Below, piece by piece: positions 37,732 to 61,599 of a stretch of 64,000 bases of DNA. The stretch comes from Candidatus Sungiibacteriota bacterium (GTDB taxonomy: Bacteria; Patescibacteriota; Minisyncoccia; Sungbacterales; JACQCQ01), in contig JACQCQ010000013.1 of the NCBI GenBank assembly GCA_016201505.1, forward strand, positions 80,830 through 144,829, written 5' to 3'. The notes under the pieces were generated by a model. It searched no databases. It was given only the letters and a program-made list of their open reading frames with translations, and had not been told where the DNA came from. A program made the position numbers and the translations under genes. Every line of letters begins with the position of its first letter. The stretch's first letter is position 1.

Positions 37732-37824
37732 TAAGCTGTATTCCAGCATATTTATTTTTATTTCTCAAATGTGAGCCAAAATCAAAATCCGTGCTGTGGC
37801 GCGGATTTTGATTTTGGTGTTTTG

Positions 37825-46253: not shown

Positions 46254-46344
46254 GAATCACGCTCGCCTGATTCCTAATTCCTGCCTGCTCCGTACCGAAC
46301 TGGTTCTGGTGCGGGGATTTTTAATTCTGCTGTTAATGGTTGGC

Positions 46345-46836: not shown

Positions 46837-46847
46837 AAAGGTACAAA

Positions 46848-46975
46848 TCCGAAATCCTAAATTCGAAATCCTAAACAAATTCTAATCCTCAAAAAACAAA
46901 ATTTCAAACGTTTCGAATTTTGAACTTTATAATTTGTCCCGAATTTAGGGTTTCGTATTTAGAGTTTGCTTAGCG
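46848..46975. repeat. AT-rich intergenic hairpin element (family shared with 56452, 58906, 59433) between nusB and rpmF.
   Basis: AAATCCGAAATCCTAAATTCGAAATCCTAAACAAATTC...GAATTTAGGGTTTCGTATTTAGAGTTTG, with inverted-repeat arms built from the CGAAAT / ATTTCG and CTAAA / TTTAG units. Confidence 0.5.
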
Positions 46976-47254
46976 ATGCGAGAGCTCCTCGGCGTTCAAT
47001 GTTTTGCTCTGTGCGGAGCTTTCCTTCTCGTGTTGCTGTAACTCTTTTTCTTTCTTTCTGCGTTCTTTCTTGTCGAGTCTCGCCAAGACATCAATCACCT
47101 GCTTGCCTTTGTAATAGCCGCAATTGGCGCAAATCGTGTGCGGATAGACTTCCGTCTGGCAGTGCGAGCATTTTGCGAGCGCGCGAAGCTTCAAGGCGTG
47201 ATGCGATCTCACGCGGTTCCTCTTGCCTCTCGTATGCCGCATTCGGATGACCAT
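46970..47254 (-). CDS. rpmF: 50S ribosomal protein L32 with a C-terminal Lys/Glu-rich extension.
   Basis: MRHTRGKRNRVRSHHAL and zinc-ribbon CSHCQ...CANCGYYKGK. Confidence 0.85.
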   Translation of the reverse strand: MVIRMRHTRGKRNRVRSHHALKLRALAKCSHCQTEVYPHTICANCGYYKGKQVIDVLARLDKKERRKKEKELQQHEKESSAQSKTLNAEELSHR

Positions 47255-47397
47255 TACAGTAGACTACTGTCTACTGTCCACCGACTACAGCCGGAGCGGT
47301 AGTCAGTAGTCTGTAGTCAGTATGCTTTTAATACCGAGATAGGATAACAAAATACGACTATTTTGACAACACTCACGACATGTTTTAAGGAAGAAGC

Positions 47398-47490
47398 GAC
47401 AACTATGAAGCTCCACGGCCGTGAGGCCGTGACATCTCGCAATTCGCCTTCAGGCGAACTCTTGCGAGATCGGCGGAATCCGCCAAAGCA
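47398..47490. ncRNA. Candidate structured RNA / conserved element, copy 2 of 2 (the other at 20216-20320), upstream of rpmF.
   Basis: Shares AAGCTCCACGGCCG..GCCGTG.CATCTCGC..TTCGCC....GGCGAACTCTTG.GAGATCGGCGGAATC with 20216-20320. Three stems are preserved with different loops and one G-U-compatible change on the plus strand. Confidence 0.35.
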
Positions 47491-47629
47491 TCCATTCCTT
47501 AACTCGGCTTAGGGTTATCCGTTGTAATCGCATTCAACCTCAGGCTAACGCCCGATGTCTTCTGCGACGGCGGATAAAAATACGGGGGAACGTCGCCGTT
47601 CCCCCACTCACCACGGATGCGGACTTCCG

Positions 47630-47872
47630 CTAATTGCGCCGATACCGGCGATCCCATTCTGCCTTCAACTTCCTCTCGGCCGAAAGATCCAGGATCACCG
47701 ACCGAAGCTCGGGAATCAGGACGACCTTCTGCTCGGCCTTTGGGGCCTTCGGCCCATCAGCCGACTTCGCAACATCATCGGGCTTCGATTTTTGCGGCGA
47801 GAAGTCGAAGTGCCGGAACTTCAGATCGCGTCCTAACTCCTCCAGACCGAAGGACCCCCGGAGTTCGTCCAT
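47630..47872 (-). CDS. Hypothetical small protein (80 aa) in a high-GC stretch with several overlapping ORFs in other frames. It may be spurious.
   Basis: ORF only. Charged, protein-like composition. Confidence 0.2.
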   Translation of the reverse strand: MDELRGSFGLEELGRDLKFRHFDFSPQKSKPDDVAKSADGPKAPKAEQKVVLIPELRSVILDLSAERKLKAEWDRRYRRN

Positions 47873-48059
47873 GGCATCCTCCTATGGCTTCGGATACCTT
47901 TATCATAACGGGTCTTTTATAAAAACCAAATAAAAAAACCTAAACGCGGTACAATCAGAAAGGCTCAAGCGACGGCGGCTTTGACTGAACATCCTACCTG
48001 TTTCGATAAAATAAAAAGCTCTGTAAGAGCTACCCGAGAAAGCCCCACTCTCCAGACAT

Positions 48060-48145
48060 CGAAAGTGATTTCTTATCGTCGGGCTGGCGGTGGGATCATT
48101 GCCGTTTGAAGGGTATTCAAAATAAAGGTGCGCTAAGAAATCACT
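48060..48145 (-). ncRNA. Conserved about 85-nt element immediately downstream of the mreB stop (copy 1 of 2; the other at 55048-55125 downstream of rpsI).
   Basis: Core TCGGGCTGGCGGTGGGATCATT..CG...GAAGGG.AT..AAA.TAAAGG.GCG conserved. It is enclosed by a different but self-complementary outer stem in each copy (GTGATTTCTTA/TAAGAAATCAC here, GGAAATTTTTCTTC/GAAGAAAAATTTCC in copy 2). Confidence 0.35.
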
Positions 48146-48156
48146 TCCAATGTGCG

Positions 48157-49167
48157 CTACCTCTTCGACATAATCGAGCGCTTGTAGATATCAAGATGCT
48201 CAAGCGCAATCCCCGTACCTTTGGCAACACAGAGCAACGCATCTTCGGCCAAGTGCGCCGGAATGCCGATTTCGCGCTCGATTAACACGTCTAAATTGCG
48301 AAGCAGCGAACCCCCGCCGGTCATCACAATACCGCGATCCATAATATCGGCTGATAATTCGGGAGGCGTCTCATGAAGGACCGTCTTGATGGCCCGCAAA
48401 ATCTCTGCCAGAGCCTCTTCTAAGGCTTGGGTGATGGCCGAAGATGAAATTTTAATCGTCCGCGGGAGGCCCGAGAGCAAATCGCGGCCTTTTACTTCCA
48501 TTGCCTCATCTTCAGTGATCTCAACCGCGCTGCCAATGGCAATTTTAACTTCCTCGGCGGTGCGATCCCCAATCGCTAAATTGAAATTTCGTTTAATATA
48601 TTCGGCGATGGCCTGATCTAATTTATTGCCCGCAACTTTAACTGATGTCGAAGCCACAATCCCGCCCAGCGAAATCACCGCGACATCAGTCGTCCCGCCG
48701 CCAATATCGATGACCATGTGGCCAGCGGCTTCATTAATGGGGATACCGGCTCCAATAGCGGCCAGCACCGGTTCTTTTACGACATAGGCGGCTTTGGCAC
48801 CCGCATGCACGGTAGCTTCAATCACGGCGCGCCGTTCAGTTGACGTGACACCGGCAGGAACTGAGACCATGACTTCGGGCCGTATAAAGCGAAACCAATT
48901 GCCGGCATTTGAAATAAAATATTTGAGCATGGCTTCGGTGACGCGATAGTCAGCAATGACGCCGTCCCGCAAAGGACGATAGGCCATGATGCTCTCTGGG
49001 GTTCGGCCGATCATGTCCCGTGCTGCATTGCCAACTGCGAGTATCCGGTTATCATCCACAGAAACTGCAACCACCGATGGCTCATTAATAATGACACCAC
49101 GCCCAGGCACAAAAACGAGCGTATTGGCGGTGCCTAAATCTATGCCGATTTTTTGCGAGAAAAACAT
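48157..49167 (-). CDS. mreB: Rod-shape-determining actin homologue MreB.
   Basis: IGIDLGTANTLV, DIGGGTTDVAVIS, and full-length MreB similarity. Confidence 0.9.
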   Translation of the reverse strand: MFFSQKIGIDLGTANTLVFVPGRGVIINEPSVVAVSVDDNRILAVGNAARDMIGRTPESIMAYRPLRDGVIADYRVTEAMLKYFISNAGNWFRFIRPEVMVSVPAGVTSTERRAVIEATVHAGAKAAYVVKEPVLAAIGAGIPINEAAGHMVIDIGGGTTDVAVISLGGIVASTSVKVAGNKLDQAIAEYIKRNFNLAIGDRTAEEVKIAIGSAVEITEDEAMEVKGRDLLSGLPRTIKISSSAITQALEEALAEILRAIKTVLHETPPELSADIMDRGIVMTGGGSLLRNLDVLIEREIGIPAHLAEDALLCVAKGTGIALEHLDIYKRSIMSKR

Positions 49168-49259
49168 GAGCGTTCCCATTTTACGCGCATTTAAAAGGCC
49201 GAGGCAAGGGGCTATCGAAACGCGCGCGCCTTGCGATATTAGACTGCAGTTTTAGACGC

Positions 49260-50735
49260 TTGGCAATTGTACGGCTTTTAGCTAGAGTTCTCGATATGAG
49301 GAAAACAACCCGTCGAGCCGTTTTTTATTTGTTTAGCGGGCTTTTTTTGATCACAACACCTTTGATCGTATTCTATGCCTTCGGTTATTCATTTGATTTC
49401 CAAAACGGTGTCGTGGTGCCTACCGGTGGCGTATTTGTGAAAGCCAACGTTGGCGCGATTCGCGTTTTGGCGAATGGAAAGCTCATGAAAGAAACAAATT
49501 TTTTAACTAAGGGCGCATTGATATCCGGCCTCTCGTCGGGCCATGTCGAAGTAGAGGTAGCGAAAGACGGATACATTCCTTGGAGAAAACCAGTCGGTAT
49601 CGAAGAGCAAGTTATTCAAGAATACCGCTCGATTCTTCTTGTACCCGAGGCCTTGCCGGCTGATCTCGTATACGGTACTACGAGCCAGGCGTCTTCAAGA
49701 CAGACTGTTTCTCTCGAGCTTTTGCCCGATCCAACGGGGAATTTCATTTTTTGGGCCGCAAAAAAAAGAAACTTAACCCGGCTACGCGTGATCAGTCGCG
49801 ATGGGGTTGAAACGCGGGCTCAAATCTCCCTGGAACCAGGCGAATCGTATCTTTCTGCCTCTTGGAATCCCAGCGGTAACGTAGTACTCGTTTCAACCAA
49901 CCGGCGTGGGCATACGATCTGGCGCGCTTTATCGGCTAATTCAAAATCCGTCCTACCGGTGTTTGATGAAAAAACTATTTTGCGTACGAGCACCTCAACC
50001 AGATCGGAAACCATCTCTGAAGCCTCGCTTAGCTTGATCACCTGGTCGCCGGCTGATATTGATGAATTTCTTGTGCTGGCAAACGGCGCGATTTACCGCT
50101 GGAATTTAAGCTCCGGGCTAGTCAAAAAAATTATTTCGAGTGCCAGATCGTTTGCCCGATTTAATGGAAATATCCTCTATTCAACTCAAAGCGGATTTAT
50201 TGCCACTGCCGATCTATCCGGCGAACATATAGAATCGCTGGATCATCCGGGTCTTTACGTTGCAAAAAGTCCGCTCCGCTATTTTCAAAATAAAGACGGC
50301 GTTTTGGCTTTGATCGACTCTGCCGGGGGACTTTATCTAGAAAACCCGAGCACAAGAAAATTCTCCCCCCTGACAACCGAGATCCATGAAGCTGAATTTT
50401 CCTCCAACACCGCCGAACTTGGCTACACCCAATCCGGCACATTCTCAACCATTGCTCTCGCTGATGAGACAACCCAGCCGTTCCGCAGAATGTACACCAA
50501 GTCGGCCATATTCACGACTGACGAAATTCTCCATTTTATATGGCTCGGCAATCCAGCAGCTCATATTGTCTATACGACCGCGCGGGGCGTATTTCTGGCG
50601 GAAACCGATCCGCGTCCGGGCGCAAATATCGTGCCGCTCCGCCGCGGAGACTACCAGATTGTCGAATCTCCCAACGACCCAAACAGTTTTTATTTCTCGG
50701 ACGGAGAAATTATTGAACGACTGACGATACGATAA
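49260..50735 (+). CDS. Membrane-anchored hypothetical protein with a PEGA-like domain and a beta-propeller-like C-terminal region.
   Basis: N-terminal TM helix. SGHVEVEVAKDGYIPWRKPV PEGA-like motif. Repetitive beta-rich C-terminus. Confidence 0.5.
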   Translation: MAIVRLLARVLDMRKTTRRAVFYLFSGLFLITTPLIVFYAFGYSFDFQNGVVVPTGGVFVKANVGAIRVLANGKLMKETNFLTKGALISGLSSGHVEVEVAKDGYIPWRKPVGIEEQVIQEYRSILLVPEALPADLVYGTTSQASSRQTVSLELLPDPTGNFIFWAAKKRNLTRLRVISRDGVETRAQISLEPGESYLSASWNPSGNVVLVSTNRRGHTIWRALSANSKSVLPVFDEKTILRTSTSTRSETISEASLSLITWSPADIDEFLVLANGAIYRWNLSSGLVKKIISSARSFARFNGNILYSTQSGFIATADLSGEHIESLDHPGLYVAKSPLRYFQNKDGVLALIDSAGGLYLENPSTRKFSPLTTEIHEAEFSSNTAELGYTQSGTFSTIALADETTQPFRRMYTKSAIFTTDEILHFIWLGNPAAHIVYTTARGVFLAETDPRPGANIVPLRRGDYQIVESPNDPNSFYFSDGEIIERLTIR

Positions 50736-50763
50736 GGTCATCCGATAACATGAAAAGTCCTAA

Positions 50764-50808
50764 AAAACATTCTCAAGTTCTTAAGAACTTGAGAATGTTT
50801 TTTAGGTT
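50764..50808. terminator. Bidirectional rho-independent terminator: 30-bp perfect palindrome flanked by A6 and T6.
   Basis: AAAAAACATTCTCAAGTTCTTAAGAACTTGAGAATGTTTTTT between convergent genes. Confidence 0.7.
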
Positions 50809-50822
50809 TCGTCTCCAGATGA

Positions 50823-51776
50823 CTACGGAAAGAATCTGCGATAGGGAGCCGAAATGATAGAACCGAATGTGGCGAGAAAGACCACCGCGACAACGAGCCA
50901 GCCGATAAAAGGAATAATTTTAAGAATTTGATAGAGCAGGACACCGATGACGATGGTTTGCCAGGAGATGTGACTCTCGCCTTTTTTATACCACAAAGAG
51001 ACATACCGGCCGAGTAAAATCGCCGCCACCGCCGATGAGACCACGATAGTTACGATATAAAGCAGAAGCCCGATCACGCCAATTGGTATGCCGATAATGG
51101 TGACAAAGGCAACGACAACCAGAATTGGAATACCAATCAAGCCAAGAAGTCCGCGAAGAATTTCTTTGCCAAAATTCGTCTCGGCCGCATGCACCACCTG
51201 CGATACCCAGGGGCCAAAGAAGTACCAAACAAGAAAGGCTAAAACAATGCCCATCAACGTTTTCATCACCCACCAAAAGCCAATAACGCCGAGGAGTCCC
51301 CCCGCGTGATTCTCGCCCGGTTTACGCGTATATTGTTTTACTGTTCCATGAACGACGCCCTGATTTTGAATATCACCGCCCGCCAGCAATAAATCCCCGC
51401 CGATGACAGCCCCCGGCAAAATTTTTACTCTCCCACCGGCCGCCAAAACATCGCCTTTCACTTGGCCCGCAATCGTCACCTCACCGCCCGCCACCCGCAG
51501 GCTATCGCCGACATTGCCCGAAATATTAATCGTCCCGCCGGCCAGCATGGCGCTTTTAGCGACATTCCCATTTACATTTACATTCCCGCCGGCCGCCGTC
51601 AGATCGCCGTTTATGTTGCCTTCAATGTTCAATGTCCCGCCGGCAATATAGAGATTGCTGTTGACTGATGCGCCTTTAGGCAGTAAATACTGATCGCCCG
51701 AATAAAATTCAGCGGCGAGCGAGACAAGCGGCACCAAAAGACCGAGGGCCGAAATGAGAATTAAGAGTTTTTTCAT
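50823..51776 (-). CDS. Bactofilin-like beta-helix repeat domain fused to a C-terminal multi-TM domain, adjacent to mreB.
   Basis: Signal/TM N-terminus. Repeats AGGTLNIEGNINGDLTAAGGNVNVNGNVAKSAMLAGGTINISGNVGDSLRVAGGEVTIAGQVKGDVLAAGGRVKI match the bactofilin (DUF583) pattern. Then about 5 TM helices. Confidence 0.55.
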   Translation of the reverse strand: MKKLLILISALGLLVPLVSLAAEFYSGDQYLLPKGASVNSNLYIAGGTLNIEGNINGDLTAAGGNVNVNGNVAKSAMLAGGTINISGNVGDSLRVAGGEVTIAGQVKGDVLAAGGRVKILPGAVIGGDLLLAGGDIQNQGVVHGTVKQYTRKPGENHAGGLLGVIGFWWVMKTLMGIVLAFLVWYFFGPWVSQVVHAAETNFGKEILRGLLGLIGIPILVVVAFVTIIGIPIGVIGLLLYIVTIVVSSAVAAILLGRYVSLWYKKGESHISWQTIVIGVLLYQILKIIPFIGWLVVAVVFLATFGSIISAPYRRFFP

Positions 51777-51850
51777 ATCAATTTCAACATACCATTTCTT
51801 TACCTTTCGTCCCACTTTGGGTGATAAATAATCCTGGTTTGATTTGCCGA

Positions 51851-52699
51851 TCAAAAACTACGCGCGGGCTGCTGGATTTGGGATTCTGCCCTAAACGCCC
51901 GATGAGCGCTTACCGAAGAATTTATTTGTTCGGGTCTCGCCTGCTTGATAATGACAGCCTGTCCTGTCGGGAGCCGAATGACTGGTTCATGATACCTGCG
52001 GCTGAACTCTTCAACGGCTTTATAGGCCCCGGGCCAGGACATAAATCCATAATCATCACAGACCATTACTCCGCCCGCTACGAGGCGAGGGTAGAAGTAT
52101 GCGAAAGCCGCCAGGGTGGGTTGGTAGAGATCCAAATCGACATGCACAAACAGATACTGCCTCTCGGGGACGTGCGCAAAGCTATCCGGTATCCAACCTT
52201 TATGGTACTCAATAAAATCGAAATCCTTCAGACTTTCTCGGACATCCTCTAGCGAATAGGCCATGCGGCCGCCGTCACTGCCGATTTTACTTGCGGGTAA
52301 TGATTTTTCGATGTCAAACTCGCTCGTAACATCTTCTTTCGTTCTAGCAGAGAGTCCTTGGAAGGAGTCGAACGCGTATATCTTATGCCTCCCGCCTTTT
52401 AGCACCGAACATAATTGAAATAGGGTAGTACCTCTGGCAATTCCCGCCTCCACAAAGTTCTGTTCCGGGTAGTTATGAAACCTCTGGCTGACATACGATG
52501 CGAGTTGAATCAAAGTATAGTTACGCACTTTGCTGGGGAAAAAATCTCCCTTATGAGTGGCTTTCAACGAATCTTGATATATCTCGTGGAACTTCTGGTC
52601 GTTTAACCAAAGATACCGCGGCTGATTGTTGAGACTCTGGGCGAGACGCATGACTTCATAGCCAAAATAGTTCGCAATTCGCCTGATTATTTTTCTCAT
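51851..52699 (-). CDS. TylF/MycF-family class I SAM-dependent O-methyltransferase.
   Basis: VEAGIARGTTL, IYAFDSFQGL, HVDLDLYQPT, GGVMVCDDYG: the macrocin-O-methyltransferase family pattern. Confidence 0.7.
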   Translation of the reverse strand: MRKIIRRIANYFGYEVMRLAQSLNNQPRYLWLNDQKFHEIYQDSLKATHKGDFFPSKVRNYTLIQLASYVSQRFHNYPEQNFVEAGIARGTTLFQLCSVLKGGRHKIYAFDSFQGLSARTKEDVTSEFDIEKSLPASKIGSDGGRMAYSLEDVRESLKDFDFIEYHKGWIPDSFAHVPERQYLFVHVDLDLYQPTLAAFAYFYPRLVAGGVMVCDDYGFMSWPGAYKAVEEFSRRYHEPVIRLPTGQAVIIKQARPEQINSSVSAHRAFRAESQIQQPARSF

Positions 52700-52726
52700 A
52701 ATGTTTTAAGACCATTATGAGCTGGC

Positions 52727-54067
52727 TCAGTTATTATCAAAATTTGACGCGGGGAAGTTCTCTCCATGATCCATCTCATCTTGAGACTGGGCCGAAGATC
52801 CCCCGCTCGATGTATTAAGCTGCTCGGCGGGAGACGTCAGTGGAACGAGACCCGTTGCCTGAACGCAGGCTATGATTTTCCCCTTCATGTCGGCTGTTGG
52901 TTGGAACGCGCCCTTGGCGTATTGATTGACAGCATCCGCGCCAAAAAGCTTAGAGATGCAGGCGAGTGGATTAAAATCAATTTTTTGCGGCATCATGCCA
53001 TGAGAACTCTCAGACCCTCCATACATATTTTTATTCTTTTCGGCCGATACTTTTTGAAAACAATCGCCGACTTTATGCCCCAGCTCGGAGTCTTTCATAA
53101 CCTGACCTGTTTCTACTTCACCCAGTTCATCCGGGGAGAGCGAATCCTTAAGGCAAGCCATTACATCGGACGGCAATTGAAACTTGGAAGAACCGCCTCG
53201 GCCCATGGGGCTCTCATGCATCATGTTGTGTTGTTCTTTTGAAAAATTCGCGCAGGTCGCCTTGTTTTCCGGCTGACTGCAAAATTGATGACATGACTCT
53301 GGCGAGTCGCATCCCCCCGGCCCCTTCATGTCTTCACTCCTAAAGTTCTTCTCCTCTTCATCCGTGATGAGTCCGGCTTTTTTGGCAAACTGGATGCATT
53401 CATCTTGATGCGCGGGGTCCTGGCAGTATGGCATGCACTCCTCTTTTGACTTGCAGCCGCCTGGAGTTTCGCCCGTCTTTATCAATTCAATAAACTTCTT
53501 GGCGCGCTGAATCTCGCTTGCATCCATTAAGCCATTCTGTTCGGCAAATGAGAGACACGCGTCCGCATGTGCCGGATCGTTGCAATACGCGCGGCAGGCG
53601 GTCTCCCCCCGGCAGCCGCCCGGCCCAATTCTTTGCGCGTCGAGTTTTGATTTGAACTTTTCAATTTTCTGAATTTCGTCCTGGCCGATTAGATTGTGCG
53701 CTTTCGCAAACGCCAAACACTCATCGCGATGTCCGGCATCAGAACAATATGCCCCGCAGGCTGATTTTGAAGTGCACCCGCCAGGTCCGCCATTTTTTAT
53801 CGCTTCCTCGATCTTCGACTGATTATCGGTTCTTCTGGGTGCGAGTCCATGAGACTCGGCATAACTTTGGCAGGCTTCGGCATTAGCCGCGACGTCGCAA
53901 AACGCTTTGCATTCGGCCATCGAGCCGCAATTGCCCAATTCGGCAATCGGAAACTTTATATCAAACGGATTAGCCGATAAGGCAAAATGCGAAAACAAAA
54001 CAGCTCCGATAATGATGAGGCATGTAAGCAGCGCCGGATGGCGGAAAGAAGTCATATTACTTTCCAA
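52727..54067 (-). CDS. Secreted Cys-rich tandem-repeat protein: five about 45-aa repeats, each GPGGC-x5-C-x3-C-x6-C with His/Asp-rich spacing.
   Basis: Signal peptide. The five repeats are:
- [34 protein letters not shown]
- [33 protein letters not shown]
- [32 protein letters not shown]
- [27 protein letters not shown]
- plus an N-terminal copy. Confidence 0.6.
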
Positions 54068-54317
54068 AGGGATTCTTATATGAATCTTGGAATGGATTCA
54101 CTGTTTTTTCATAGGGATTGGTCGCCGGAACTTTGTTGCCGATTGAGGAGGAGGCGCGAATGTTTATTCTGATGTTCTCGTTGGGAGTTGCTCTCGCAGC
54201 CGGCCCTTGATTAAAGATGCTCTCCTTCCAGTCCGGCCCCAAAGTTTTATATATGAAAAAAGCGGCAGCCAAAATGACGATAACGGTGATTAGGGCAATC
54301 ATGTATTTCATAGACAC
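54057..54317 (-). CDS. Small membrane-anchored protein (86 aa), probably co-transcribed with the Cys-rich protein.
   Basis: N-terminal TM helix [18 protein letters not shown]. 11-nt overlap with the downstream gene start. Confidence 0.4.
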
Positions 54318-54438
54318 TCTCTATTATAGATCCTGCAAAAAAGCCGTAAATACGCCTTTATAAACAATCACTTTTTAGACGTCTCAAATTTTTATTCTAA
54401 CTTTCTTAAGAACTTGAGAATGTTATTTTTACGCTGGT

Positions 54439-54897
54439 CTAAATTTTCTGCCAGCCGATGACGGGATGAAGTTCCCACCAGTTATGAAAGGTATCAAACC
54501 GGACAATGCCCCAGATTTTGATGCGATCGCCGGCTGTGGGTAGCGGCAAGTTTTTAATTTCAGGAATAAATTCAGTAACAAGCAACGACTCGTCCGGTGC
54601 CTTGATTACGACATGAAAGTCTCCGTCGGGTTGCGGGGCGATGATATTGACGACGCCCTCGACTGTAACTTTTGTCTTCTTGCTGCCGTGCGTAATGAAG
54701 GTGGCAAGATCAGTATCGTAATAGAGCAGGTCATCATCCTCCGTTTCACCTTGCTGGACAGAATAAGAAAGGGTTCGTTCTACAATTTTGGGAATTAAAG
54801 CCCGTGGATTTAATGTTTGGGATCGAATATAAAAACCAAACCCGATGCCCGCGCCCAAGACAACCAGAAACTTTACCGCCCAAAGCCATCGCGTCAT
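54439..54897 (-). CDS. Membrane-anchored hypothetical protein (152 aa).
   Basis: N-terminal TM helix, then a soluble beta-rich domain. Flanked by degenerate copies of the 50771 terminator palindrome. Confidence 0.5.
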   Translation of the reverse strand: MTRWLWAVKFLVVLGAGIGFGFYIRSQTLNPRALIPKIVERTLSYSVQQGETEDDDLLYYDTDLATFITHGSKKTKVTVEGVVNIIAPQPDGDFHVVIKAPDESLLVTEFIPEIKNLPLPTAGDRIKIWGIVRFDTFHNWWELHPVIGWQKI

Positions 54898-54989
54898 AAA
54901 CTTAGTTTAACCGTTCTCTGTTGACTATAGAAGGCTGACTGGGGAAACAGAATCAGTTCCGACAACATTCTCAAGTTCTTACTCTACCC

Positions 54990-55020
54990 CAGAAAAAACC
55001 GCCCGCGGGCGGTTTTTTTC
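54990..55020. terminator. Bidirectional terminator downstream of rpsI.
   Basis: AAAAAACCGCCCGCGGGCGGTTTTTTT. Confidence 0.65.
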
Positions 55021-55047
55021 TGCCTCATGCAAAGCGGGGAAATTTTT

Positions 55048-55125
55048 CTTCATCGGGCTGGCGGTGGGATCATTTACGCCCGAAGGGCTATCGAAATAAA
55101 GGCGCGAAGAAAAATTTCCTGCGAG
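55048..55125 (-). ncRNA. Conserved 3'-flank element, copy 2 of 2 (see 48060-48145), immediately downstream of the rpsI stop.
   Basis: Same conserved core as 48060-48145 with a covarying outer stem. Confidence 0.35.
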
Positions 55126-55692
55126 CTATCGTTTTTGCCACTGCGGGGCGCGACGGGCTTTTTTAAGTCCAAACTTTTTGCGCTCTACTTCTCGTGCATC
55201 GCGGGTTAGGAAGCCTGCCCGTTTTAGTCTTTTTCTAAATTCTGGATTGAATACTGTGAGTGCTCTCGAAATGCCAAGCCGAATGGCTTCGGCTTGGGAG
55301 TGAATGCCGCCACCATTAACTTTGGCCGAAACGCGAAAGCGGCCTTCAGAGCGCATCTTTTTCATCGGGTCATCAACCAGCCGCTGGAGTTCCATGGTGG
55401 GAAAATATTCCTTATAGGGCCGCTGGTTTACGACCGTCACTAAATCGCCCTTGGTATATAAACGCACGCGGGCGACCGCCGTTTTTCTGCGGCCGACAGC
55501 TTCAAAATAGCGATCGGTTTTGGGAATAACAAATTGAAAATCGGCCTCCGATTCTTTTTCGGGCTCCCCTACCATAGCCATTTTTGGACTATGGATGGCG
55601 ACTTCCTGCTTCTTGACTTTGGCGCGAGTCGTCGGCGCTTTCTCCTTTTTTGGTTTTTCCTCTCCGCCTTTGGCGGATTTCTTCGTCGGCAT
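55126..55692 (-). CDS. rpsI: 30S ribosomal protein S9 with an N-terminal Lys-rich extension.
   Basis: GRRKTAVARV, GGG, RLGISRAL, AGFLTRDAREVERKKFGLKKARRAPQWQKR: the S9 C-terminal signature. Confidence 0.9.
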   Translation of the reverse strand: MPTKKSAKGGEEKPKKEKAPTTRAKVKKQEVAIHSPKMAMVGEPEKESEADFQFVIPKTDRYFEAVGRRKTAVARVRLYTKGDLVTVVNQRPYKEYFPTMELQRLVDDPMKKMRSEGRFRVSAKVNGGGIHSQAEAIRLGISRALTVFNPEFRKRLKRAGFLTRDAREVERKKFGLKKARRAPQWQKR

Positions 55693-55716
55693 AGCCTAAT
55701 TCTTAATTCATTATTC

Positions 55717-56073
55717 CTAATTCTCGCTTCCTCGATGCATCACTAAATGCCTGATCCGAATCGCGCGGAGTTTGTTTTTCGGCAGCATGCCCATCACGGC
55801 ATGCTCCAAAACTTTCCGCGAGTCTTTAGCAAATAAATCTTTATAAACAGTTTCTTTCAGTCCTCCATGAAAGCCGGAATGATGACGATAGAGTTTTTGA
55901 TCCGCCTTCTTTCCGGTGACGCGAAGCTTATCGGTATTGGTGACTACAACTTTGGTCTCACCGGGTTTCGCATAATCAAATGCGGCGCCGCTTTTGCCCA
56001 TTAAGTGTTTGGCAACTAGAACGGCCAGCCGTCCGACAACCTTATTTGCTGCATCTAATTTCACCTCCTTCAT
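55717..56073 (-). CDS. rplM: 50S ribosomal protein L13.
   Basis: VVGRLAV.VAK.L; YYRHSGF.GG L13 core (LYRHHSGFHGGL). Confidence 0.9.
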   Translation of the reverse strand: MKEVKLDAANKVVGRLAVLVAKHLMGKSGAAFDYAKPGETKVVVTNTDKLRVTGKKADQKLYRHHSGFHGGLKETVYKDLFAKDSRKVLEHAVMGMLPKNKLRAIRIRHLVMHRGSEN

Positions 56074-56103
56074 AATTCCTCATTCATTATTCCTAATTCA
56101 CGG

Positions 56104-56451
56104 CTACACAAACTCAATAATGGCGAGTCTGGCCGCATCTGACTTGCGAACACCTAATTTCATAATCCGGGTGTATCCTCCATTTCGATCCTTATAATTC
56201 GGCGCGATTTTTTCAATCAAGATTCCCGCAATTTTCGGCGAAGTCGCGGAAATAATTTGCCGGCGTTTGGCGAGTGTCCCGGCTTTGGCTTTTGTCACCA
56301 ATTTTTCTACCGCTGGACGCAGTTCTTTGGCACGGGCTTCGGTCGTCTGGATGCGGCGGCGCAACACCAAAGCCGAGACGAGTGATTTCATAAACGCCTT
56401 TCTTTGATCCGTCTTGCGGCCGAATATTCTGCCCCTGCGTCTGTGCTGCAT
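56104..56451 (-). CDS. rplQ: 50S ribosomal protein L17.
   Basis: MQHRRRGRIFGRKTDQRKAFMKSL and TTEARAKELRP, a typical L17. Confidence 0.9.
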   Translation of the reverse strand: MQHRRRGRIFGRKTDQRKAFMKSLVSALVLRRRIQTTEARAKELRPAVEKLVTKAKAGTLAKRRQIISATSPKIAGILIEKIAPNYKDRNGGYTRIMKLGVRKSDAARLAIIEFV

Positions 56452-56581
56452 ACAAGCTAAATTCTAAATTCGAAACTCGAAATACGAAACAAATTCTAAA
56501 TTCAAAAGATTGAAATTCAAGACGTGCTTCATAATTTTGAATTTGGTCATTTGAATTTGTTTAGGATTTAGGATTTCGTGC
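56452..56581. repeat. AT-rich about 130-bp intergenic hairpin element between rpoA and rplQ. It is near-identical over about 117 nt to 58906-59042.
   Basis: ACAAGCTAAATTCTAAATTCGAAACTCGAAATACGAAACAAATTCTAAATTCAAAAGATTGAAATTCAAGACGTGCTTCATAATTTTGAATTTGGTCATTTGAATTTGTTTAGGATTTAGGATTTCGTGCTTAGGATTT, with long imperfect inverted-repeat arms. Confidence 0.6.
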
Positions 56582-57535
56582 TTAGGATTTTAGGCTTAAG
56601 CCTAATTTCGCAAGCATCGCTCTAATTTCTTCAATACCCTTGTCGCCAATGCCCTCGAATTCCCGAAGTTTTTCTTCAGTCTTTTTGGCCAGCGCGCCGG
56701 CAGTCTTAATACCAGCCTCCGCCAGCGCATTTAACGTTCGGCTCGAGAAATCCATATCGACTATTTTCAGCTTGGCCAGATCTTGAGTCCCGTCTTCGGC
56801 GGTTTCAGCTATAGATTCTGCCGTATGGGCGCGTGAGCCCATTTCCGGGCGCGTCTCGTAGTTTGCCAGAAGCGACTTAAATTGGTCAACTAGGATGCTG
56901 GTCGCGCCCGCCAAAGCTTCCTGGGGGGTAAGGCTGCCATCGGTTTCGATATGTAAGCGGAGGCGGTTATAGTCGGTTTGGTCTCCCACGCGCATGTTCT
57001 CCACTTCATAATTTACATGCCGCACGGGAGAAAATGCCGCATCCAGAGCAATCGTTCCAATTTCGACTTTATCTTTAGAACGCTGTTCAACCGGCTGATA
57101 GCCGAGACCGCGCGAGACTTCAAGCTCCATTTCGAGCGTGGCTTTTTTGTCGGTAATCGTGGCGATATGCAGATCGGGCGAGACGATTTCCAATTGCGAA
57201 GGGCATTTTAAGTCTTTGGCTTTTACCTCCTTCTCGCCTTTAACCGAAAGTGAGGCGGCATACGGCCCGTCGCCGTGAATCTTAAAGCGCAGCCGCTTTA
57301 AATTGAGAATAATTTCGACGATGTCTTCTAAAACGCCGTCAATCGAAGTAAATTCATGTCCGACACCTTTAATTTTGACGGAGGTGACTGCCGCTCCTTC
57401 CAGTGAAGAAAGCATAACGCGGCGCAGGCTGTTCCCGATGGTGAGACCGTATCCCGGATAAAGATTCTCGATCTCATAGGTGCCGCGGTTTCCTTCTTCT
57501 TGAATGACGCGCGCCTCGCTGGGTGATGGAATCAT
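56582..57535 (-). CDS. rpoA: DNA-directed RNA polymerase alpha subunit.
   Basis: Full-length RpoA similarity: N-terminal dimerisation domain and C-terminal alpha-CTD (RTLNALAEAGIKT). Confidence 0.95.
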   Translation of the reverse strand: MIPSPSEARVIQEEGNRGTYEIENLYPGYGLTIGNSLRRVMLSSLEGAAVTSVKIKGVGHEFTSIDGVLEDIVEIILNLKRLRFKIHGDGPYAASLSVKGEKEVKAKDLKCPSQLEIVSPDLHIATITDKKATLEMELEVSRGLGYQPVEQRSKDKVEIGTIALDAAFSPVRHVNYEVENMRVGDQTDYNRLRLHIETDGSLTPQEALAGATSILVDQFKSLLANYETRPEMGSRAHTAESIAETAEDGTQDLAKLKIVDMDFSSRTLNALAEAGIKTAGALAKKTEEKLREFEGIGDKGIEEIRAMLAKLGLSLKS

Positions 57536-57607
57536 ACTCTGGCTGGTACACTTCGCGGATAAACGTTCTGTGGCAGTTCACCCAACTCTTGCACCAGCTT
57601 GGACTCA

Positions 57608-58228
57608 TTATTTTGAATAAAACTCAACGACAAGTCTTAAATTCCTGCCGACACCTTCTTCTTTCGGCAGATCGTTTACAGTCGCCGCACACGCTTCGGG
57701 GTCGAGACTGATCCAAGCCGGCGGATTATATTTTTTGAGGGCATTGGCCAGTCCTTCAAAGCCTTGGCCTGCAAGTGACTGCGGGCGAATGGAAATAACA
57801 TCTCCCTTGCGTACGCGGTATGAAGGAATATTGACGCGGCGGCCATTGACCAGCACATGCCCATGCGAGACAATGTGCCGCGCGATACCGCGCGAGACGG
57901 TAAACCCCGCACGATAAACCACGTTATCAAGACGTCGCTCTAAAATCTGCATCAAGACCTCGCCGGTTTTTCCTGCCTTCTGCTGGGCCTCGGTAAAAAC
58001 TTTTTCGAGAGCCGTGTCCGTCAGCCCATAGGTGTATCTCATTTTTTGTTTTTCCATCAATTGTGTGCCGAATTCGGAGACGTTTCGTTTCGGCCGCTTG
58101 CCGTGCATGCCGGGCCGTGTGCCGCGGCGAAGAGAGGCGCATTTGGGCCCCATACAGCGTTCCCCTTTCATAAACATCTTCTCGCCATAGCGGCGACAGA
58201 CTTTACATTTTGCTTGGATGCGTGACAT
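57608..58228 (-). CDS. rpsD: 30S ribosomal protein S4.
   Basis: MSRIQAKCKVCRRYGEKMFMKGERC zinc-ribbon N-terminus. S4 domain with YRAGF and R-x-x-A-R-Q (IARHIVSHGHVLVNG). Confidence 0.95.
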   Translation of the reverse strand: MSRIQAKCKVCRRYGEKMFMKGERCMGPKCASLRRGTRPGMHGKRPKRNVSEFGTQLMEKQKMRYTYGLTDTALEKVFTEAQQKAGKTGEVLMQILERRLDNVVYRAGFTVSRGIARHIVSHGHVLVNGRRVNIPSYRVRKGDVISIRPQSLAGQGFEGLANALKKYNPPAWISLDPEACAATVNDLPKEEGVGRNLRLVVEFYSK

Positions 58229-58293
58229 GCCTATTTTGTCGAAATTATTGAGTGAGTGAAGCGAACGAAAAGAATTTCGTTACAAAACTGAGC

Positions 58294-58392
58294 ACCCCGT
58301 TAGATACTATGCGAACAGACATAGCGCTTACTTTAGAATTTGGGTTGCAATCGGGGTTTTTGGTCTTTTTCATACTCATTATCTAACGGGGT
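58294..58392. mobile_element. MITE-like element (99 bp) with ACCCCGTTAGATA / TATCTAACGGGGT terminal inverted repeats, between rpsK and rpsD.
   Basis: 13-bp terminal inverted repeats with the CCCGTTAGA core. Confidence 0.5.
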
Positions 58393-58449
58393 AAAGGTTT
58401 TGTTATAAAAATTGATTTCGCTTGGCTCATGAATTTTTAACAAAGCCCT

Positions 58450-58905
58450 TTAAACTCTCCTCACTTTTTTCGGCCGAACGCCATTATGCGGTACCGGTGT
58501 AATATCTTTAATCATCATGATATTGAGCCCGTGATTGGCGAGAGCCCTCACCGCCGAATCTCTACCCGAGCCAATACCTTTCACCAGTACAGCGACATCT
58601 TCCAGTCCGGTTTTTTTTACTTTCTCTACCACGGTTTCGGCGACCCGAGCCGCGGCAAAGGGGGTGGCTTTTTTGGCCCCCTTAAACCCCAGCGCGCCAG
58701 CCGAAGACCAGGCCATAACGTTTCCCTTGTCGTCACTGATCGAAATCATAGTGTTATTGTAGGTGGCTTGGACATGCGCCACACCCCGGACAACGTGTCG
58801 CCCCGAAGCCCCCGCCTCTTTCATCTTGGAAACTTTAGACTCGAGCTCCTCACGCTCTTTTAAAGCCTCCTCGGCGCCTTGTTTTGCTACGCGTTTTTTT
58901 CCCAT
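58450..58905 (-). CDS. rpsK: 30S ribosomal protein S11.
   Basis: GVAHVQATYNNTMISISDDKGNVMAWSSAG..GFKG.KK.TPFAA: the S11 core. Confidence 0.9.
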   Translation of the reverse strand: MGKKRVAKQGAEEALKEREELESKVSKMKEAGASGRHVVRGVAHVQATYNNTMISISDDKGNVMAWSSAGALGFKGAKKATPFAAARVAETVVEKVKKTGLEDVAVLVKGIGSGRDSAVRALANHGLNIMMIKDITPVPHNGVRPKKVRRV

Positions 58906-59042
58906 ACAAGCTAAATTCTAAATTCGAAACTCGAAATACGAAACAAATTCTAAATTCAAAAGATTGAAATTCAAGACGTGCTTCATAATTTTGAATTTGG
59001 TCATTTGAATTTGTTTAGAGTTTAGGATTTCGTGCTTAGGAT
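58906..59042. repeat. AT-rich intergenic hairpin element between rpsM and rpsK (near-identical copy of 56452-56581).
   Basis: About 117/118 identical to the rpoA-rplQ spacer element. Confidence 0.6.
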
Positions 59043-59432
59043 TTATGTCGGTGAGGCCGCTGATTTTCTGCCGGAGCCCATCGTCTTTCGCACATTGCCG
59101 CGGCGCGTTCGTGAATTCGTTTTTGTCCGCTGGCCGTTGACTGGCAGGCCGCGCATATGGCGCAGGCCGCGATAGGTTGAGATGTCTTTAAGTCTTTTAA
59201 TGTTCATCATAATCTCGCGGCGCAAATCTCCTTCAATTTTGTAACTCTTTTCAATTGCGTCTCGCAGCCGCCCGATTTCATCTTGCGTGAGGCTATCACT
59301 CTTTTTACTCGGGCTCACATTGGCAACTTTTAAAACCTGCTTGGCGTTTGTGGCACCAATGCCATAAATATATCTCAAAGCGACATCAACTCTTTTTTTA
59401 TCTGGAATGGCAATACCCGCAATGCGAACCAT
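59043..59432 (-). CDS. rpsM: 30S ribosomal protein S13.
   Basis: MVRIAGIAIPDKKRVDVALRYIYGIG...YRGLRHMRGLPVNGQRT: the S13 signature. Confidence 0.9.
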   Translation of the reverse strand: MVRIAGIAIPDKKRVDVALRYIYGIGATNAKQVLKVANVSPSKKSDSLTQDEIGRLRDAIEKSYKIEGDLRREIMMNIKRLKDISTYRGLRHMRGLPVNGQRTKTNSRTRRGNVRKTMGSGRKSAASPT

Positions 59433-59561
59433 AGTAAATCAAATTCTAAATCCGAATTTCTAAATCCGAAACAAATACCAATACACCAAATCCAAAATTT
59501 GGAACTTTAGAATTTAGAATTTGTTTAGAGTTTAGGATTTCGTGCTTAGGATTTTTCATGT
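59433..59561. repeat. AT-rich intergenic hairpin element between rpmJ and rpsM. Its 3' half matches the 56452/58906 elements.
   Basis: ...GAATTTAGAATTTGTTTAGAGTTTAGGATTTCGTGCTTAGGATTT is shared with the other copies. The 5' arm is built from AAATCCGAAA / CTAAATCCGAA units. Confidence 0.5.
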
Positions 59562-59675
59562 TTAGCCTTGCCGCTGCTTATGCTTTGGATTCTTGCATAC
59601 AACAAATACTCGACCGTTCCGTCGAGTTGTCTTGCAATGACTGCAGATCTTTTTAACCGATGCGCGAACTTTCAT
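59562..59675 (-). CDS. rpmJ: 50S ribosomal protein L36. It is not in the ORF track because it is under 60 aa.
   Basis: Manual translation [37 protein letters not shown] matches the L36 consensus ([11 protein letters not shown]...RR.GR..V.C.NP.HKQRQG). Confidence 0.85.
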
Positions 59676-59780
59676 CCCGTTAGAAGCAGATCGCGATCAA
59701 ACGCGTTGTCTGCAAAAATAAATGTAATTAAATTGCTCTTTGTAACCCCGCTATTTCGCGATCGCGGCTTCTAACGGGAT
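59674..59780. mobile_element. MITE-like element (107 bp). Its terminal repeats ATCCCGTTAGAAGCAGA...CGCGGCTTCTAACGGGAT match those of the 32309 element in reverse orientation. Its left end overlaps the rpmJ start codon.
   Basis: Both ends carry the CCCGTTAGAAG core and match the 32309-32473 ends in reverse orientation. An internal GATCGCGATCAAACGCG block is shared with 32309-32473. The element begins with the AT of the rpmJ ATG. Confidence 0.6.
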
Positions 59781-59786
59781 TAATCC

Positions 59787-60002
59787 CTACTTCATGCGCA
59801 GTACGATCCTGCCTTTCGTTAAATCATAGGGCGACATTTCAATCCGCACGCGATCCCCGGGCAGAACCCGAATGTGATGCACGCGCATTTTCCCGCCCAA
59901 ATGGGCCAGGATCTCTTGCCCATTGTCGAGGAGAACCCTAAACAGGGTAGAGGGCAACGCTTCAGTTACTTCGCCTTCATGGATGATTTTGTCACCTGCC
60001 AT
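59787..60002 (-). CDS. infA: Translation initiation factor IF-1.
   Basis: S1-like OB fold: [31 protein letters not shown]...[22 protein letters not shown]. Confidence 0.9.
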
Positions 60003-60078
60003 TGTATTTTTTCGCCTACGGCGAAAGGAGTAGTGATATGGTATCAGAGGGGGCCTTTCGCGTCAACCCTATTTTAAG

Positions 60079-61599
60079 CTAAGATCCGGCTGCAAACGGC
60101 TCAATCGTTAGATTGATTTTGGCTGGGTCATCGGGGGCATTTTTAAGCCAAAAAGGGAAGAATTTAAGCTTATAGGCCTTAAGCCCGGGTACCGTCTGGA
60201 GCGCACTTTCAATCGCCCCAGGCGAACTGCCTTCAATTTTTTGCAAAATAGCATCTCGGTCGAGTCGACCGCCAAGTACGACGGCATTGGAAAGCGTATA
60301 GGTCAGTTGGTGTCTCGCAATATCGAGATTAACCCCGGTTCTCGCGAGCGCGCTGCCAGGCTCCACAAAAACTTTAGGACTTGAGGTCGAAAATAAGGCC
60401 GCGACCAGTTCCTCTTCATCCTGATTTCGAAATGCCATGGCGTTCACCTTACCCGTGGCTGTCACCGCAAACTGATCACCGGCCGTTCCGGCCTTAGGCG
60501 AAGAAACATTGGTGATGGCAATTTCGCGGGCCCCGTCAATAATGGTAAACCCGTCAGGGATCTTTAGTTTCAATTGATCCCGAAGATAATTAAACAAATC
60601 CGCCGTTACGCCTTGGCTGGCATTTTTGATATCTATCTCGGTGATCACATTCGATTCACCGGATACGCCACCGGAAAATCCATTCGCGGCAGTTGCCGTA
60701 ATGGTTTGATATTTCGGCGTCCCTTTAAACCCGACAATCTTGAGTAGGACGGGGCCAGAGTTATAGAGGGGTCCAACATCCGCGGCGGAAACTGTTGCCT
60801 GAATGGTACTAGGCGACAGTTTGCCCGCCTGCGATTTTGCTCCGGGGACCGTCACACCTTTATCGAGGCGATAGATTTTTCCTTCTGGAGTTTGAAATCG
60901 GGTCTCTATAATTAAAACTTGCGGGTCAGTACCAAAGGCGTTGGTAATGAGAATCGTGCCTTTGGCTTTTTGATTGGTTCTGGCGTGTCCAGATGATTTA
61001 GCCGTAACTTGACGGCTTTCGGTGAAGGTAATCATCTCGCCGGGAATAATGCCCCGCGCCGGATCGATGGCGTTGGCATCCGAACTGACTTTCAGCGGCG
61101 TGGGGGGCAGATTAAAGGTGTCGGTCGTGGGGGTGAGCGAGATACTCACGCGAGCAAATGTCGTTGAGAGTAAAATGATAAGAGCCAGCACCGCTCCTAA
61201 AAAACCGCCGACCATAAGCCAGCTCCGCCGGTGGCGTCTTCGACCCGGCTCCCAGGTTCTAACTTCAAATTTGTCTTTGGGGGCTAGCATCTTTCTCGAA
61301 TCTGCTTGGGGTACTTCTTCTTTCAGCGTCACTTCTTCCGCCCGCGGGCGGAAAAAATCGGCAATAGCCTGATCCGTGTCAGCCGGCAGTTTGGGAGCTG
61401 GGATGGGCTCGGCCCTTTTTTTCGGTTTTGGCGGCGAGTCAGGCGTTTTTGGCTCGTCTCTAAATGTAATCTCTGTTACCGGTTCATTAGTTGGCTCAAT
61501 TTTTTTTAAAACAATGGGCTCGGCCCTTTTTTTCCCGACTCGAATGTCATTCAGGCCACGTCGCGACAGGGCTTTATTTTTATCAGGTAATCCAGTCAT
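60079..61599 (-). CDS. Membrane-anchored hypothetical protein: a Pro/Lys-rich cytoplasmic N-terminus, a single TM helix and a large extracytoplasmic domain.
   Basis: TM helix SWLMVGGFLGAVLALIILL. No recognised family. Confidence 0.45.
   Translation of the reverse strand: MTGLPDKNKALSRRGLNDIRVGKKRAEPIVLKKIEPTNEPVTEITFRDEPKTPDSPPKPKKRAEPIPAPKLPADTDQAIADFFRPRAEEVTLKEEVPQADSRKMLAPKDKFEVRTWEPGRRRHRRSWLMVGGFLGAVLALIILLSTTFARVSISLTPTTDTFNLPPTPLKVSSDANAIDPARGIIPGEMITFTESRQVTAKSSGHARTNQKAKGTILITNAFGTDPQVLIIETRFQTPEGKIYRLDKGVTVPGAKSQAGKLSPSTIQATVSAADVGPLYNSGPVLLKIVGFKGTPKYQTITATAANGFSGGVSGESNVITEIDIKNASQGVTADLFNYLRDQLKLKIPDGFTIIDGAREIAITNVSSPKAGTAGDQFAVTATGKVNAMAFRNQDEEELVAALFSTSSPKVFVEPGSALARTGVNLDIARHQLTYTLSNAVVLGGRLDRDAILQKIEGSSPGAIESALQTVPGLKAYKLKFFPFWLKNAPDDPAKINLTIEPFAAGS

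Follow-up and report, generated by a model that had tools for sequence, protein, structure and literature searches.

The spacer hairpins of two translation operons

The window analysed here, a stretch of 64,000 nucleotides (64 kb), comes from a genome of Candidatus Sungbacteria, a lineage of the Candidate Phyla Radiation (CPR, or Patescibacteria), and 55 of its 69 gene calls lie on the minus strand. Two runs of translation-related genes within it, the alpha-operon run from infA to rpsI and the rpmF-nusB-rnc cluster (Table 1), carry four AT-rich imperfect hairpins of about 130 nt each, copies A to D of what we call the heptamer-hairpin family, and each copy takes up an entire spacer between two cistrons. 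An nhmmer profile built from the four copies recovers them in the window at E = 3e-30 to 3e-35 and a cross-genome family profile at E = 4e-21 to 5e-26 (74-90 bits), while beyond these copies and a half copy described below every match to the window profile has E >= 0.09. A degenerate 29-nt pattern derived from the ATG-proximal arm likewise finds five sites, the four copies and the half copy, versus none in 100 shuffles. Thus, the claim of an earlier, sequence-only reading that four such elements sit in named ribosomal-protein spacers is borne out, both by the Pfam identities of the genes and by the window-profile E-values. The same reading described the elements as long imperfect inverted repeats, and indeed both strands of all four copies fold as long imperfect hairpins; it also placed rnc, the gene for RNase III, in the window, where Pfam finds it two genes downstream of copy D. 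Minimum free energies for the transcribed strand range from -22 to -34 kcal/mol (z = -1.3 to -4.5), copy D being the best folded (-33.7 kcal/mol, z = -4.5).

Copies A and B lie between unrelated genes and are identical at 140 of 142 positions (98.6%). They match without a single difference over about 116-117 nt, the start ATG of the following gene included, so that the identity over about 117 nt reported earlier stands. At copy A the near-identity covers 56449-56590 and takes in the end of rpoA, namely its two final codons and TAA stop (AAA TCC TAA), with which the shared block starts, as well as the ATG of rplQ. For copies A and D, the upstream gene ends on the TAA of the element's CTAAGCA motif; the rpmF stop (46970-46972) falls just beyond the copy D interval, and the 5' end of copy D overlaps the end of rpmF. 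Between the last heptamer and the start codon there are 8-12 nt in each of the four copies, without a Shine-Dalgarno sequence. Copies B and C have promoter-proximal arms that are about 98% identical, whereas the apex and the other arm of copy C differ; because one arm is common to the two copies and the remainder is not, copy C is a mosaic whose arms were exchanged between copies. Copies C and D had both been said to share the 3' arm (plus strand) with A and B, which is true of copy C (95-98% identical) but holds only loosely for copy D (73%). A 26-mer specific to copies A and B found no match in a metagenome scan for further copies from the same population, and short-read contigs from the window's own organism terminate within the element. 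The RpoA of this organism, which is 100% identical to an NCBI protein of Candidatus Sungbacteria, occurs in the samples SRR12113409 and SRR12113410.

Two coding candidates at the copies were rejected. An element-made C-terminal extension of RpoA is ruled out, as the KLGLSLKS end is native and the same in relatives, the overlap of RpoA with the element's first heptamer being confined to the last two codons and the stop. A 37-aa open reading frame (ORF) in copy C (59446-59559) is taken as a chance occurrence, having no counterpart in copies A, B and D. As a separate observation, a GGAGG-type Shine-Dalgarno sequence is missing before most start codons of the operon, and several of these are preceded by a common GAATTAGGAAT motif; the upstream regions of rplM, rpsI and rnc are at 56074-56103, 55693-55716 and ~46254-46290.

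Table 1. Elements of the heptamer-hairpin family in the window, with the genes that surround them
Feature	Position	Strand	Location and evidence
Copy A	56452-56581	minus	entire rpoA/rplQ spacer; family profile 89.7 bits, E = 4.6e-26
Copy B	58906-59042	minus	entire rpsM/rpsK spacer; family profile 87.4 bits
Copy C	59433-59561	minus	entire rpmJ/rpsM spacer; family profile 73.6 bits
Copy D	46837-46969	minus	entire rpmF/nusB spacer; family profile 76.7 bits
Half copy, 3' arm only	27855-27949	minus	16S rRNA gene insertion; window profile E = 5.9e-10; family profile E = 3e-11, 41.5 bits
infA-rpmJ-rpsM-rpsK-rpsD-rpoA-rplQ-rplM-rpsI	60002-55126	minus	Pfam
rpmF-nusB-rnc	47254-45540	minus	Pfam
rnc (RNase III)	45540-46253	minus	Ribonucleas_3_3 8e-37, dsrm 3e-12
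16S rRNA gene	27198-30525	minus	broken by several insertions

Anatomy of the family and pairing of its arms

The element consists of two arms of about 55 nt, built of tandem heptamers around a variable apex. The arm unit is AAATYCK, the opposite arm is its complement, and the family consensus reads AAATYCGAAGCACGAAATCCGAAATYCGAAACAAATTCAAATGACCAAAATTCAAAAC-loop-GTTTTGAACATTTGAATTTCGGATTTGTTTCGGATTTCGATATTCGGATTTCGGATTT. Terminal inverted repeats are present (AAATYCG at one end, CGRATTT at the other), the entire element being an inverted repeat. Each arm holds four to seven heptamers (at least three contiguous direct 7-nt units, intergenic), and these are accompanied by landmarks that are not heptamers and recur in the same order across phyla: AAACAAAT in mid-arm, GCAC opposite GATATT, and CAAATGACC near the apex. 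The opposite arm is conserved although it was not in the search pattern, and this includes the asymmetric GCAC opposite GATATT. Since the GCAC variant faces GATATT on the other arm, the palindrome has a polarity.

The consensus folds with -69 kcal/mol, and compensatory pairing keeps the hairpin. Paired cells make up 78.6% of the aligned pairs versus 76.2 +/- 0.3% in column-shuffled controls, cells in which both partners have changed number 293 versus 222 +/- 15 in column shuffles, and one variable heptamer position is switched between GC, TA and CG jointly on both arms. With the pairing partner shifted by +/-7 columns, 62-63% of cells are still paired. A small excess of G-T over A-C tracks the element's own polarity.

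Distribution across phyla, viruses and rRNA genes

Searched for in a one-genome-per-species collection, the arm pattern occurs in at least 120 contigs, all of them from metagenome-assembled genomes (MAGs) and several each from several MAGs, in at least 14 phyla, a count that is a lower bound. Among the phyla are Patescibacteria, Desulfobacterota, Planctomycetota, Omnitrophota, Acidobacteriota, Nitrospirota, Verrucomicrobiota, Chloroflexota, Bacteroidota, Proteobacteria, Actinomycetota, Elusimicrobia and Calditrichota. In the window and 120 genome loci the family profile marks 162 copies with E-values down to 1e-36; 103 are full (99 of them outside the window), and about 40 solo 3' arms are among the others. 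Arms have a median identity of 0.68 within phyla and 0.66 across them, and copies A and B are 83% identical to a copy from Aminicenantes. Another 49 contigs are viral and hold 89 copies. In two of them, tailed-phage contigs from IMG/VR, several copies occupy spacers next to the genes for the portal and the HK97-type major capsid protein (L156, 5927-9162; L140, 8760-11392). A blastn search with the consensus found no match among PLSDB plasmids and GenBank phages, a weak negative because the low-complexity filter may mask the query. Rfam has no family at the elements, whether in a gathering-threshold scan of the window and 33 related loci or in an E-value scan of 56400-59620, and below threshold there are only miRNA-like hits and Alpha_RBS. 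No description of the heptamer-hairpin family came up in literature searches, by sequence string or by topic, and it appears to be undescribed.

It could be argued that such hairpins arise locally and independently, by heptamer slippage and palindrome formation, and form no common family. The window and its relatives are rich in other short-repeat hairpins, mostly of heptamers, with unrelated units, and heptamer arrays are common in other bacteria (PMC4679880). However, the non-heptamer landmarks that keep their order across phyla, together with the profile E-values, contradict an independent origin of the heptamer-hairpin family, for which we find this explanation hardly credible, although it may apply to the other heptamer hairpins.

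Members of the family also reside in rRNA genes. The half copy is the 3' end of a ~1.07-kb insertion in the window's 16S rRNA gene, directly before TAGATACCC, which confirms a suspected relationship of the fragment near 27855-27925. Two more fragments proposed as relatives are not significant (E = 6-8 with the window profile): 29838-29960 is a 162-nt AT-rich hairpin insertion of the same 16S gene, and 38575-38625 consists of ATTAGRA heptamers, six in direct repeat, a short way upstream of the ATG at 38562. Elsewhere, full copies lie within 23S genes. In a Saccharibacteria contig (L061) four of them replace hairpin tips at positions ~160, ~283, ~583 (helix 25 region) and ~1898 of the large-subunit (LSU) model; a Paceibacterota contig (L040) has two, of which one occupies that helix 25 site with reversed orientation and the other the tip of helix 45 (model ~1218). 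Another Saccharibacteria contig (L008) has one copy in its 16S gene. Helices 25 and 45 of 23S rRNA are the classical sites of intervening sequences (IVSs), which RNase III removes, and a 2024 survey of CPR rRNA insertions described many short, ORF-less and unclassified ones at IVS sites, for which excision by RNase III was proposed (PMC11270868). Copies in L061 and L040 occupy exactly these sites, at the helix tips (helix 25, 45 or 9) by which IVSs are recognised. That copies can sit within rRNA helices implies that their hairpin, once transcribed, is removed or else tolerated. The four copies of the window are relatives of IVSs and not IVSs themselves, as they are located in mRNA spacers.

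As a further observation at these sites, two similar small hairpins of 15-23 nt flank each rRNA-embedded copy (L061, 3601-6358; L040, 5849-5986 and 6686-6809), for example CCGTGC-ATA-GCACGG and CCGTG-CTGTA-CACGG, which looks like a duplication of the host-helix tip. We know of no standard transposition mechanism that would explain such paired flanking hairpins.

Genomic context and the same spacers in relatives

Full copies between co-directional genes are split evenly between sense and antisense (21 and 21), with 11 more between convergent and 3 between divergent genes, all counted from crude ORF-based gene calls. Gene 3' ends are preferred, many copies abut stop or start codons, and there is no strand bias relative to local GC skew (37 to 35), a proxy for replication direction. 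The 150 flanking proteins from other genomes, most of them products of ordinary metabolic genes, have matches to 231 Pfam families; S11 is found twice, and translation genes do not dominate. In the window all full copies are in translation-related operons, but the restriction to highly expressed operons that was first supposed is not borne out for the family as a whole.

In five Sungbacteria contigs (L172-L176; RpoA 71-77% identical) the gene order is kept and the alpha-operon spacers measure 4 to ~180 nt. A comparison of presence and absence among related genomes, proposed with the sequence-only reading, turned out unfavourably: a family member is found in only one orthologous spacer of the five relatives, rpoA/rplQ of L175 (E = 3e-10). 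Most other spacers of the relatives hold hairpins of other short tandem units (GAACTAG, TACGAAT, ACAAGTG, AAAATCA, TAGTTGA). Such differing hairpins in orthologous spacers point to fast spacer turnover, and the heptamer-hairpin family is one of several such hairpin families, the one with the widest documented distribution. Unlike its neighbours, the rpsD/rpoA spacer keeps a motif in six of six Sungbacteria genomes; this motif, GGACTGCCACA(A/G)AACGTT (window 57536-57607), could serve rpoA as a conserved leader or a regulatory site. With both orientations equally frequent, unrelated neighbours and no conservation at orthologous spacers, the idea that the elements tune expression as dedicated regulators was not upheld.

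One specific form of regulation would be a cis-acting RNA of ribosomal-protein operons, that is, an autogenous repressor site or an attenuator. The site upstream of rpsM matches the position of the E. coli alpha-operon leader, and Rfam gives a weak Alpha_RBS match at 59400-59506. However, its 20.5 bits are below the gathering threshold of 38 for RF00140, the element occurs in four different spacers and beside unrelated genes in many phyla, and the orthologous rpmJ/rpsM, rpsM/rpsK and rpoA/rplQ spacers of the five relatives contain, with one exception, unrelated sequence. Attenuation, which had been suggested earlier, further lacks its U-tract terminator: a scan of 55000-60100, which does not extend to copy D, found no terminator-like site in copies A, B and C, and the stems are AU-rich with no T-run following. 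The distribution already contradicts a cis-regulator of ribosomal proteins, which we regard as very improbable.

Alternatively, the element might act as DNA, its heptamers binding a transposase, a nucleoid protein or a replication protein, or its palindrome serving as a cruciform or a portable promoter. It is in keeping with this that the sequence is conserved across phyla beyond what pairing requires, that the conserved asymmetric 3x3 mismatch confers a polarity independent of transcription, that solo arms are frequent and that copies A and B contain TTGAAT-16 nt-TAGAAT directed at the downstream gene. Yet promoter-like sites are at chance level in 55000-60100 (7 versus 5.4 expected) and the motif is outside the family consensus, for which reasons the portable promoter was rejected. 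Moreover, no candidate protein recurs beside the copies among the 25 commonest flanking Pfam families, and residence in rRNA helices argues that the transcribed form is at least harmless. An element that acts at the DNA level is thus an improbable explanation, if less so than a ribosomal-protein cis-regulator.

A tolerated dispersed repeat as the probable explanation

The explanation that we favour, and hold to be probable with some reservation, is that the family is a foldback dispersed repeat, akin to miniature inverted-repeat transposable elements (MITEs) and repetitive extragenic palindromes (REPs), which is tolerated in transcribed non-coding positions because its RNA forms a hairpin that is probably cut by RNase III. 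Copies would multiply within genomes by duplication, transposition or gene conversion and would also pass between lineages, persisting where an insertion spares genes: in cistron spacers, in regions 3' of genes, at rRNA helix tips and in phage late operons. The copies of the window would be co-transcribed with the alpha operon and with rpmF-nusB-rnc, and each transcribed copy would fold into an imperfect, AU-rich duplex of roughly 50 bp. Duplexes of this kind are natural substrates of RNase III, which the genome encodes, and cleavage is likely in this organism, with Rnc as the candidate enzyme for the transcribed hairpins. RNase III would then split the polycistronic mRNA at the four spacers, as in the removal of an IVS from 23S rRNA, which proceeds without religation. 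The upstream mRNA would keep a hairpin stub, whereas the downstream cistron, itself lacking a Shine-Dalgarno sequence, would begin with a single-stranded, AU-rich leader. If expression were tuned in this way, the tuning would be a side effect rather than a control circuit specific to ribosomal proteins.

Several observations weigh against this explanation. Wobble pairs (G-U) show no enrichment on the transcribed strand (134 versus 150), and the antisense strands of copies A and B fold better (-33 kcal/mol) than their mRNA strands do (-22 and -25 kcal/mol; z = -1.3 and -2.3); selection for an RNA hairpin in mRNA is thus not demonstrated. Processing by RNase III, as put forward in the sequence-only reading, is plausible and gains indirect support from the family members at 23S helices 25 and 45 in two CPR lineages. 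Neither a transposase nor a recurrent neighbour is among the 25 commonest of the 231 flanking Pfam families, and no gene for a REP-associated tyrosine transposase (RAYT) was seen adjoining copies among these. There is no consistent target-site duplication at the borders of A and B or in within-genome pairs, and no autonomous parent, for which no dedicated search was made, in the 120 loci of up to 8 kb, whose apices reach at most ~170 nt. The proposed mobility is thus read from the distribution. Furthermore, instead of transfer, strong purifying selection exerted by a conserved binding partner could account for the weak phylogenetic signal. Finally, the alpha operon is occupied in three other genomes (L021, L065 and L034), at rpmJ/rpsM in a Gribaldobacteria MAG, at rpsM/rpsK in another Patescibacteria MAG and at rpsK/rpsD in a planctomycete, and in a phage the major capsid gene has copies on either side. 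To some degree the family may therefore favour highly expressed operons or be of benefit there.

Such a benefit is the core of a competing explanation, in which the elements punctuate operons to the advantage of the host: as selected RNase III or mRNA-stabilising sites they would uncouple the stoichiometry of cistrons and would have spread by their usefulness in highly expressed operons. Intercistronic sites of phage T7 and the REP in malE-malF are precedents. The translation-related setting of all four full copies in the window, the recurrence in the alpha operon, the copies around the phage capsid gene and the compensatory changes that keep the stem all fit, as does the presence of some hairpin, albeit of different sequence, in most of the same spacers in related Sungbacteria. 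However, genes flanking the family are mostly ordinary metabolic ones, the two orientations are equally frequent, the transcribed strand has no G-U excess, and the same spacer is just 4 nt long in a relative. We therefore consider selected operon punctuation rather unlikely, though deserving of more credit than a role as DNA.

A bolder extension of the favoured explanation, which we offer tentatively as a possibility short of an even chance, is that the family is a mobile insertion with its own removal signal. Because the host's RNase III, a universal enzyme, would excise or cut through its hairpin after transcription, it could colonise essential transcribed DNA (rRNA helices, ribosomal-protein operons and phage late operons) with no lethal effect on the host, and the long-unexplained IVSs, at least those of CPR rRNA genes, would be resident copies of a dispersed repeat that crosses phyla. 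The heptamers and the mismatch would be the sites of a mobilising, perhaps phage-borne, protein; such a candidate mobilising or binding protein is suggested by the asymmetric mismatch, the consensus across phyla and the phage copies.

Relation to known repeats

MITEs, derived from DDE elements, have terminal inverted repeats as the heptamer-hairpin family does, but their target duplication of fixed length was not found for the family. Correia (NEMIS) elements of Neisseria and ERIC (IRU) elements of enterobacteria are imperfect palindromes, 100-160 nt long, that lie either way round within transcribed spacers, and their copies can alter the expression of neighbours; Correia hairpins are cut by RNase III and those of ERIC by RNase E. 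No transposase is known for ERIC. These families are restricted to a genus or family, and Correia elements have defined terminal repeats and a TA duplication, neither of which was found in the heptamer-hairpin copies, a comparison made by description only. The RNase III sites of T7 are irregular, internally looped hairpins between the cistrons of highly expressed operons, but they are single-copy, about 60 nt long, orientation-specific and not repeats. They resemble the family in that copies of the latter lie between phage structural genes; for the family, cleavage is a prediction.

IVSs, known from Salmonella, Campylobacter, Coxiella and Rhizobiales, and the short ORF-less rRNA insertions of CPR (PMC11270868) are likewise AT-rich hairpins of ~100-200 nt at the tips of helices 25 and 45, with a sporadic distribution attributed to horizontal transfer. 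What sets the family apart from them is the position of the window copies in mRNA spacers and its occurrence in the intergenic DNA of many phyla and in phages; we found no report in the literature of such intergenic or phage dispersal of IVS sequence families.

REPs are imperfect palindromes of 20-40 nt with a GTAG or CGTC tag and are lineage-specific (PMC3733652). They are mobilised by RAYTs, Y1 HUH transposases whose single-copy gene usually has REPs beside it. Like REPs, their mosaics (bacterial interspersed mosaic elements, BIMEs) and their hairpin doublets (REPINs), the heptamer-hairpin elements are multicopy extragenic palindromes, often in operons and at gene 3' ends, which join into mosaics with other small hairpins; mRNA-stabilising roles have been assigned to REPs. 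In one Desulfobacterota MAG, for example, the element is duplicated in a BIME-like mosaic of ~330 nt with other small hairpins, and solo arms are common. However, neither the consensus nor the 103 aligned full copies contain a GTAG or CGTC tag, the arms are ~55 nt of heptamers, the family extends over at least 14 phyla, and there is no strand bias relative to GC skew, such as single-strand transposition would lead one to expect. Two side observations concern solo arms: they are fused to widespread small hairpin repeats of the GTCATGCTGAGCGAAGCGAAGCATC and GTCATTCCCGCGGAAGCGGGAATCC types in L010 (4105-4624) and also in L022, L044 and L027, and on a Pirellulales contig a solo arm and small hairpins form a tandem array with units of ~160 nt.

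Intergenic heptamer arrays have been described in cyanobacteria, and TAACTGA arrays in Beggiatoaceae, Cyanobacteria and Bacteroidetes (PMC4679880; bioRxiv 10.1101/2022.06.06.494920). They share with the family the 7-nt period, the intergenic position often beside start codons and the patchy occurrence across phyla, and a TTTTGAA unit is also found in the family's apex-proximal arm. These arrays are direct repeats of one unit, however, whereas here an inverted pair makes a foldback with non-repeat landmarks and a consensus.

If our explanation is correct, dispersed intergenic palindromes and rRNA intervening sequences, which are usually treated apart, would be tied together, and the short ORF-less rRNA insertions typical of CPR would have a testable origin. 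Non-coding repeats are normally lineage-specific; a consensus kept over at least 14 phyla and phages with scant phylogenetic signal points to either frequent inter-phylum transfer or a widely conserved binding partner. In practical terms, the repeat breaks short-read assemblies in core operons and rRNA genes and may be mistaken for a regulatory RNA, and it also provides a sequence handle for mapping RNA processing in uncultured organisms.

Other repeats and insertions in the window

The 16S rRNA gene of the window is broken by several insertions, as is typical of CPR. They measure 62 nt, 38 nt, 162 nt (the AT-rich hairpin, ~29818-29980), 577 nt (after GUGCCAG, ~29197-29774) and ~1.07 kb (~27851-28925, lying between GGGAT and TAGATACCC and containing small ORFs as well as an 18-bp inverted repeat), and a further one follows past ~position 1390. 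Near the gene Rfam marks a group I intron and a group II D1-D4 fragment (25643-26423, 26884-26960). The 577-nt insertion holds one copy of another family, D3, with the core GTTCGATAGACTAGTCTATCGAAC (15684-15723, 16146-16185, 20415-20454, 29421-29460, 35242-35281), and over 40 nt this copy matches one from an ordinary spacer at every position (100%). D3 is thus a second dispersed palindrome common to spacers and an rRNA insertion.

Three families of small palindromes also occur in spacers: ACTAGTAC..CCGATCGG..GTACTAGT (1382-1445, 1978-2041, 17033-17096), CACTCCAATACTTTAAAGTATTGGAGTG (31817-31860, 36534-36577, 36978-37021) and ATTCTCAAGTTCTTAAGAACTTGAGAAT (50769-50803, 54394-54428). Other heptamer hairpins or arrays in spacers are of the GAATTAA type, the CTAGTTN type and, just upstream of rpmF, the GACTACA/GACAGTA type, with sites at 10326-10418, 25512-25547, 30532-30567, 31718-31763, 42287-42345, 47255-47320, 37750-37824 and 38575-38625. 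Heptamer-built spacers appear to be a general habit of the window genome and its relatives L172-L176. Lastly, a 74-nt motif stands downstream of operons at 48068-48141 and 55042-55115 (76% identical), with a core CCCACCGCCAGCCCGA within the inverted repeat ATTTCTTA...TAAGAAAT and no match in Rfam. It recurs in the infA-rpsM spacer of L175 (3612-4089), upstream of an uncalled rpmJ, and is a candidate small RNA or structured element.

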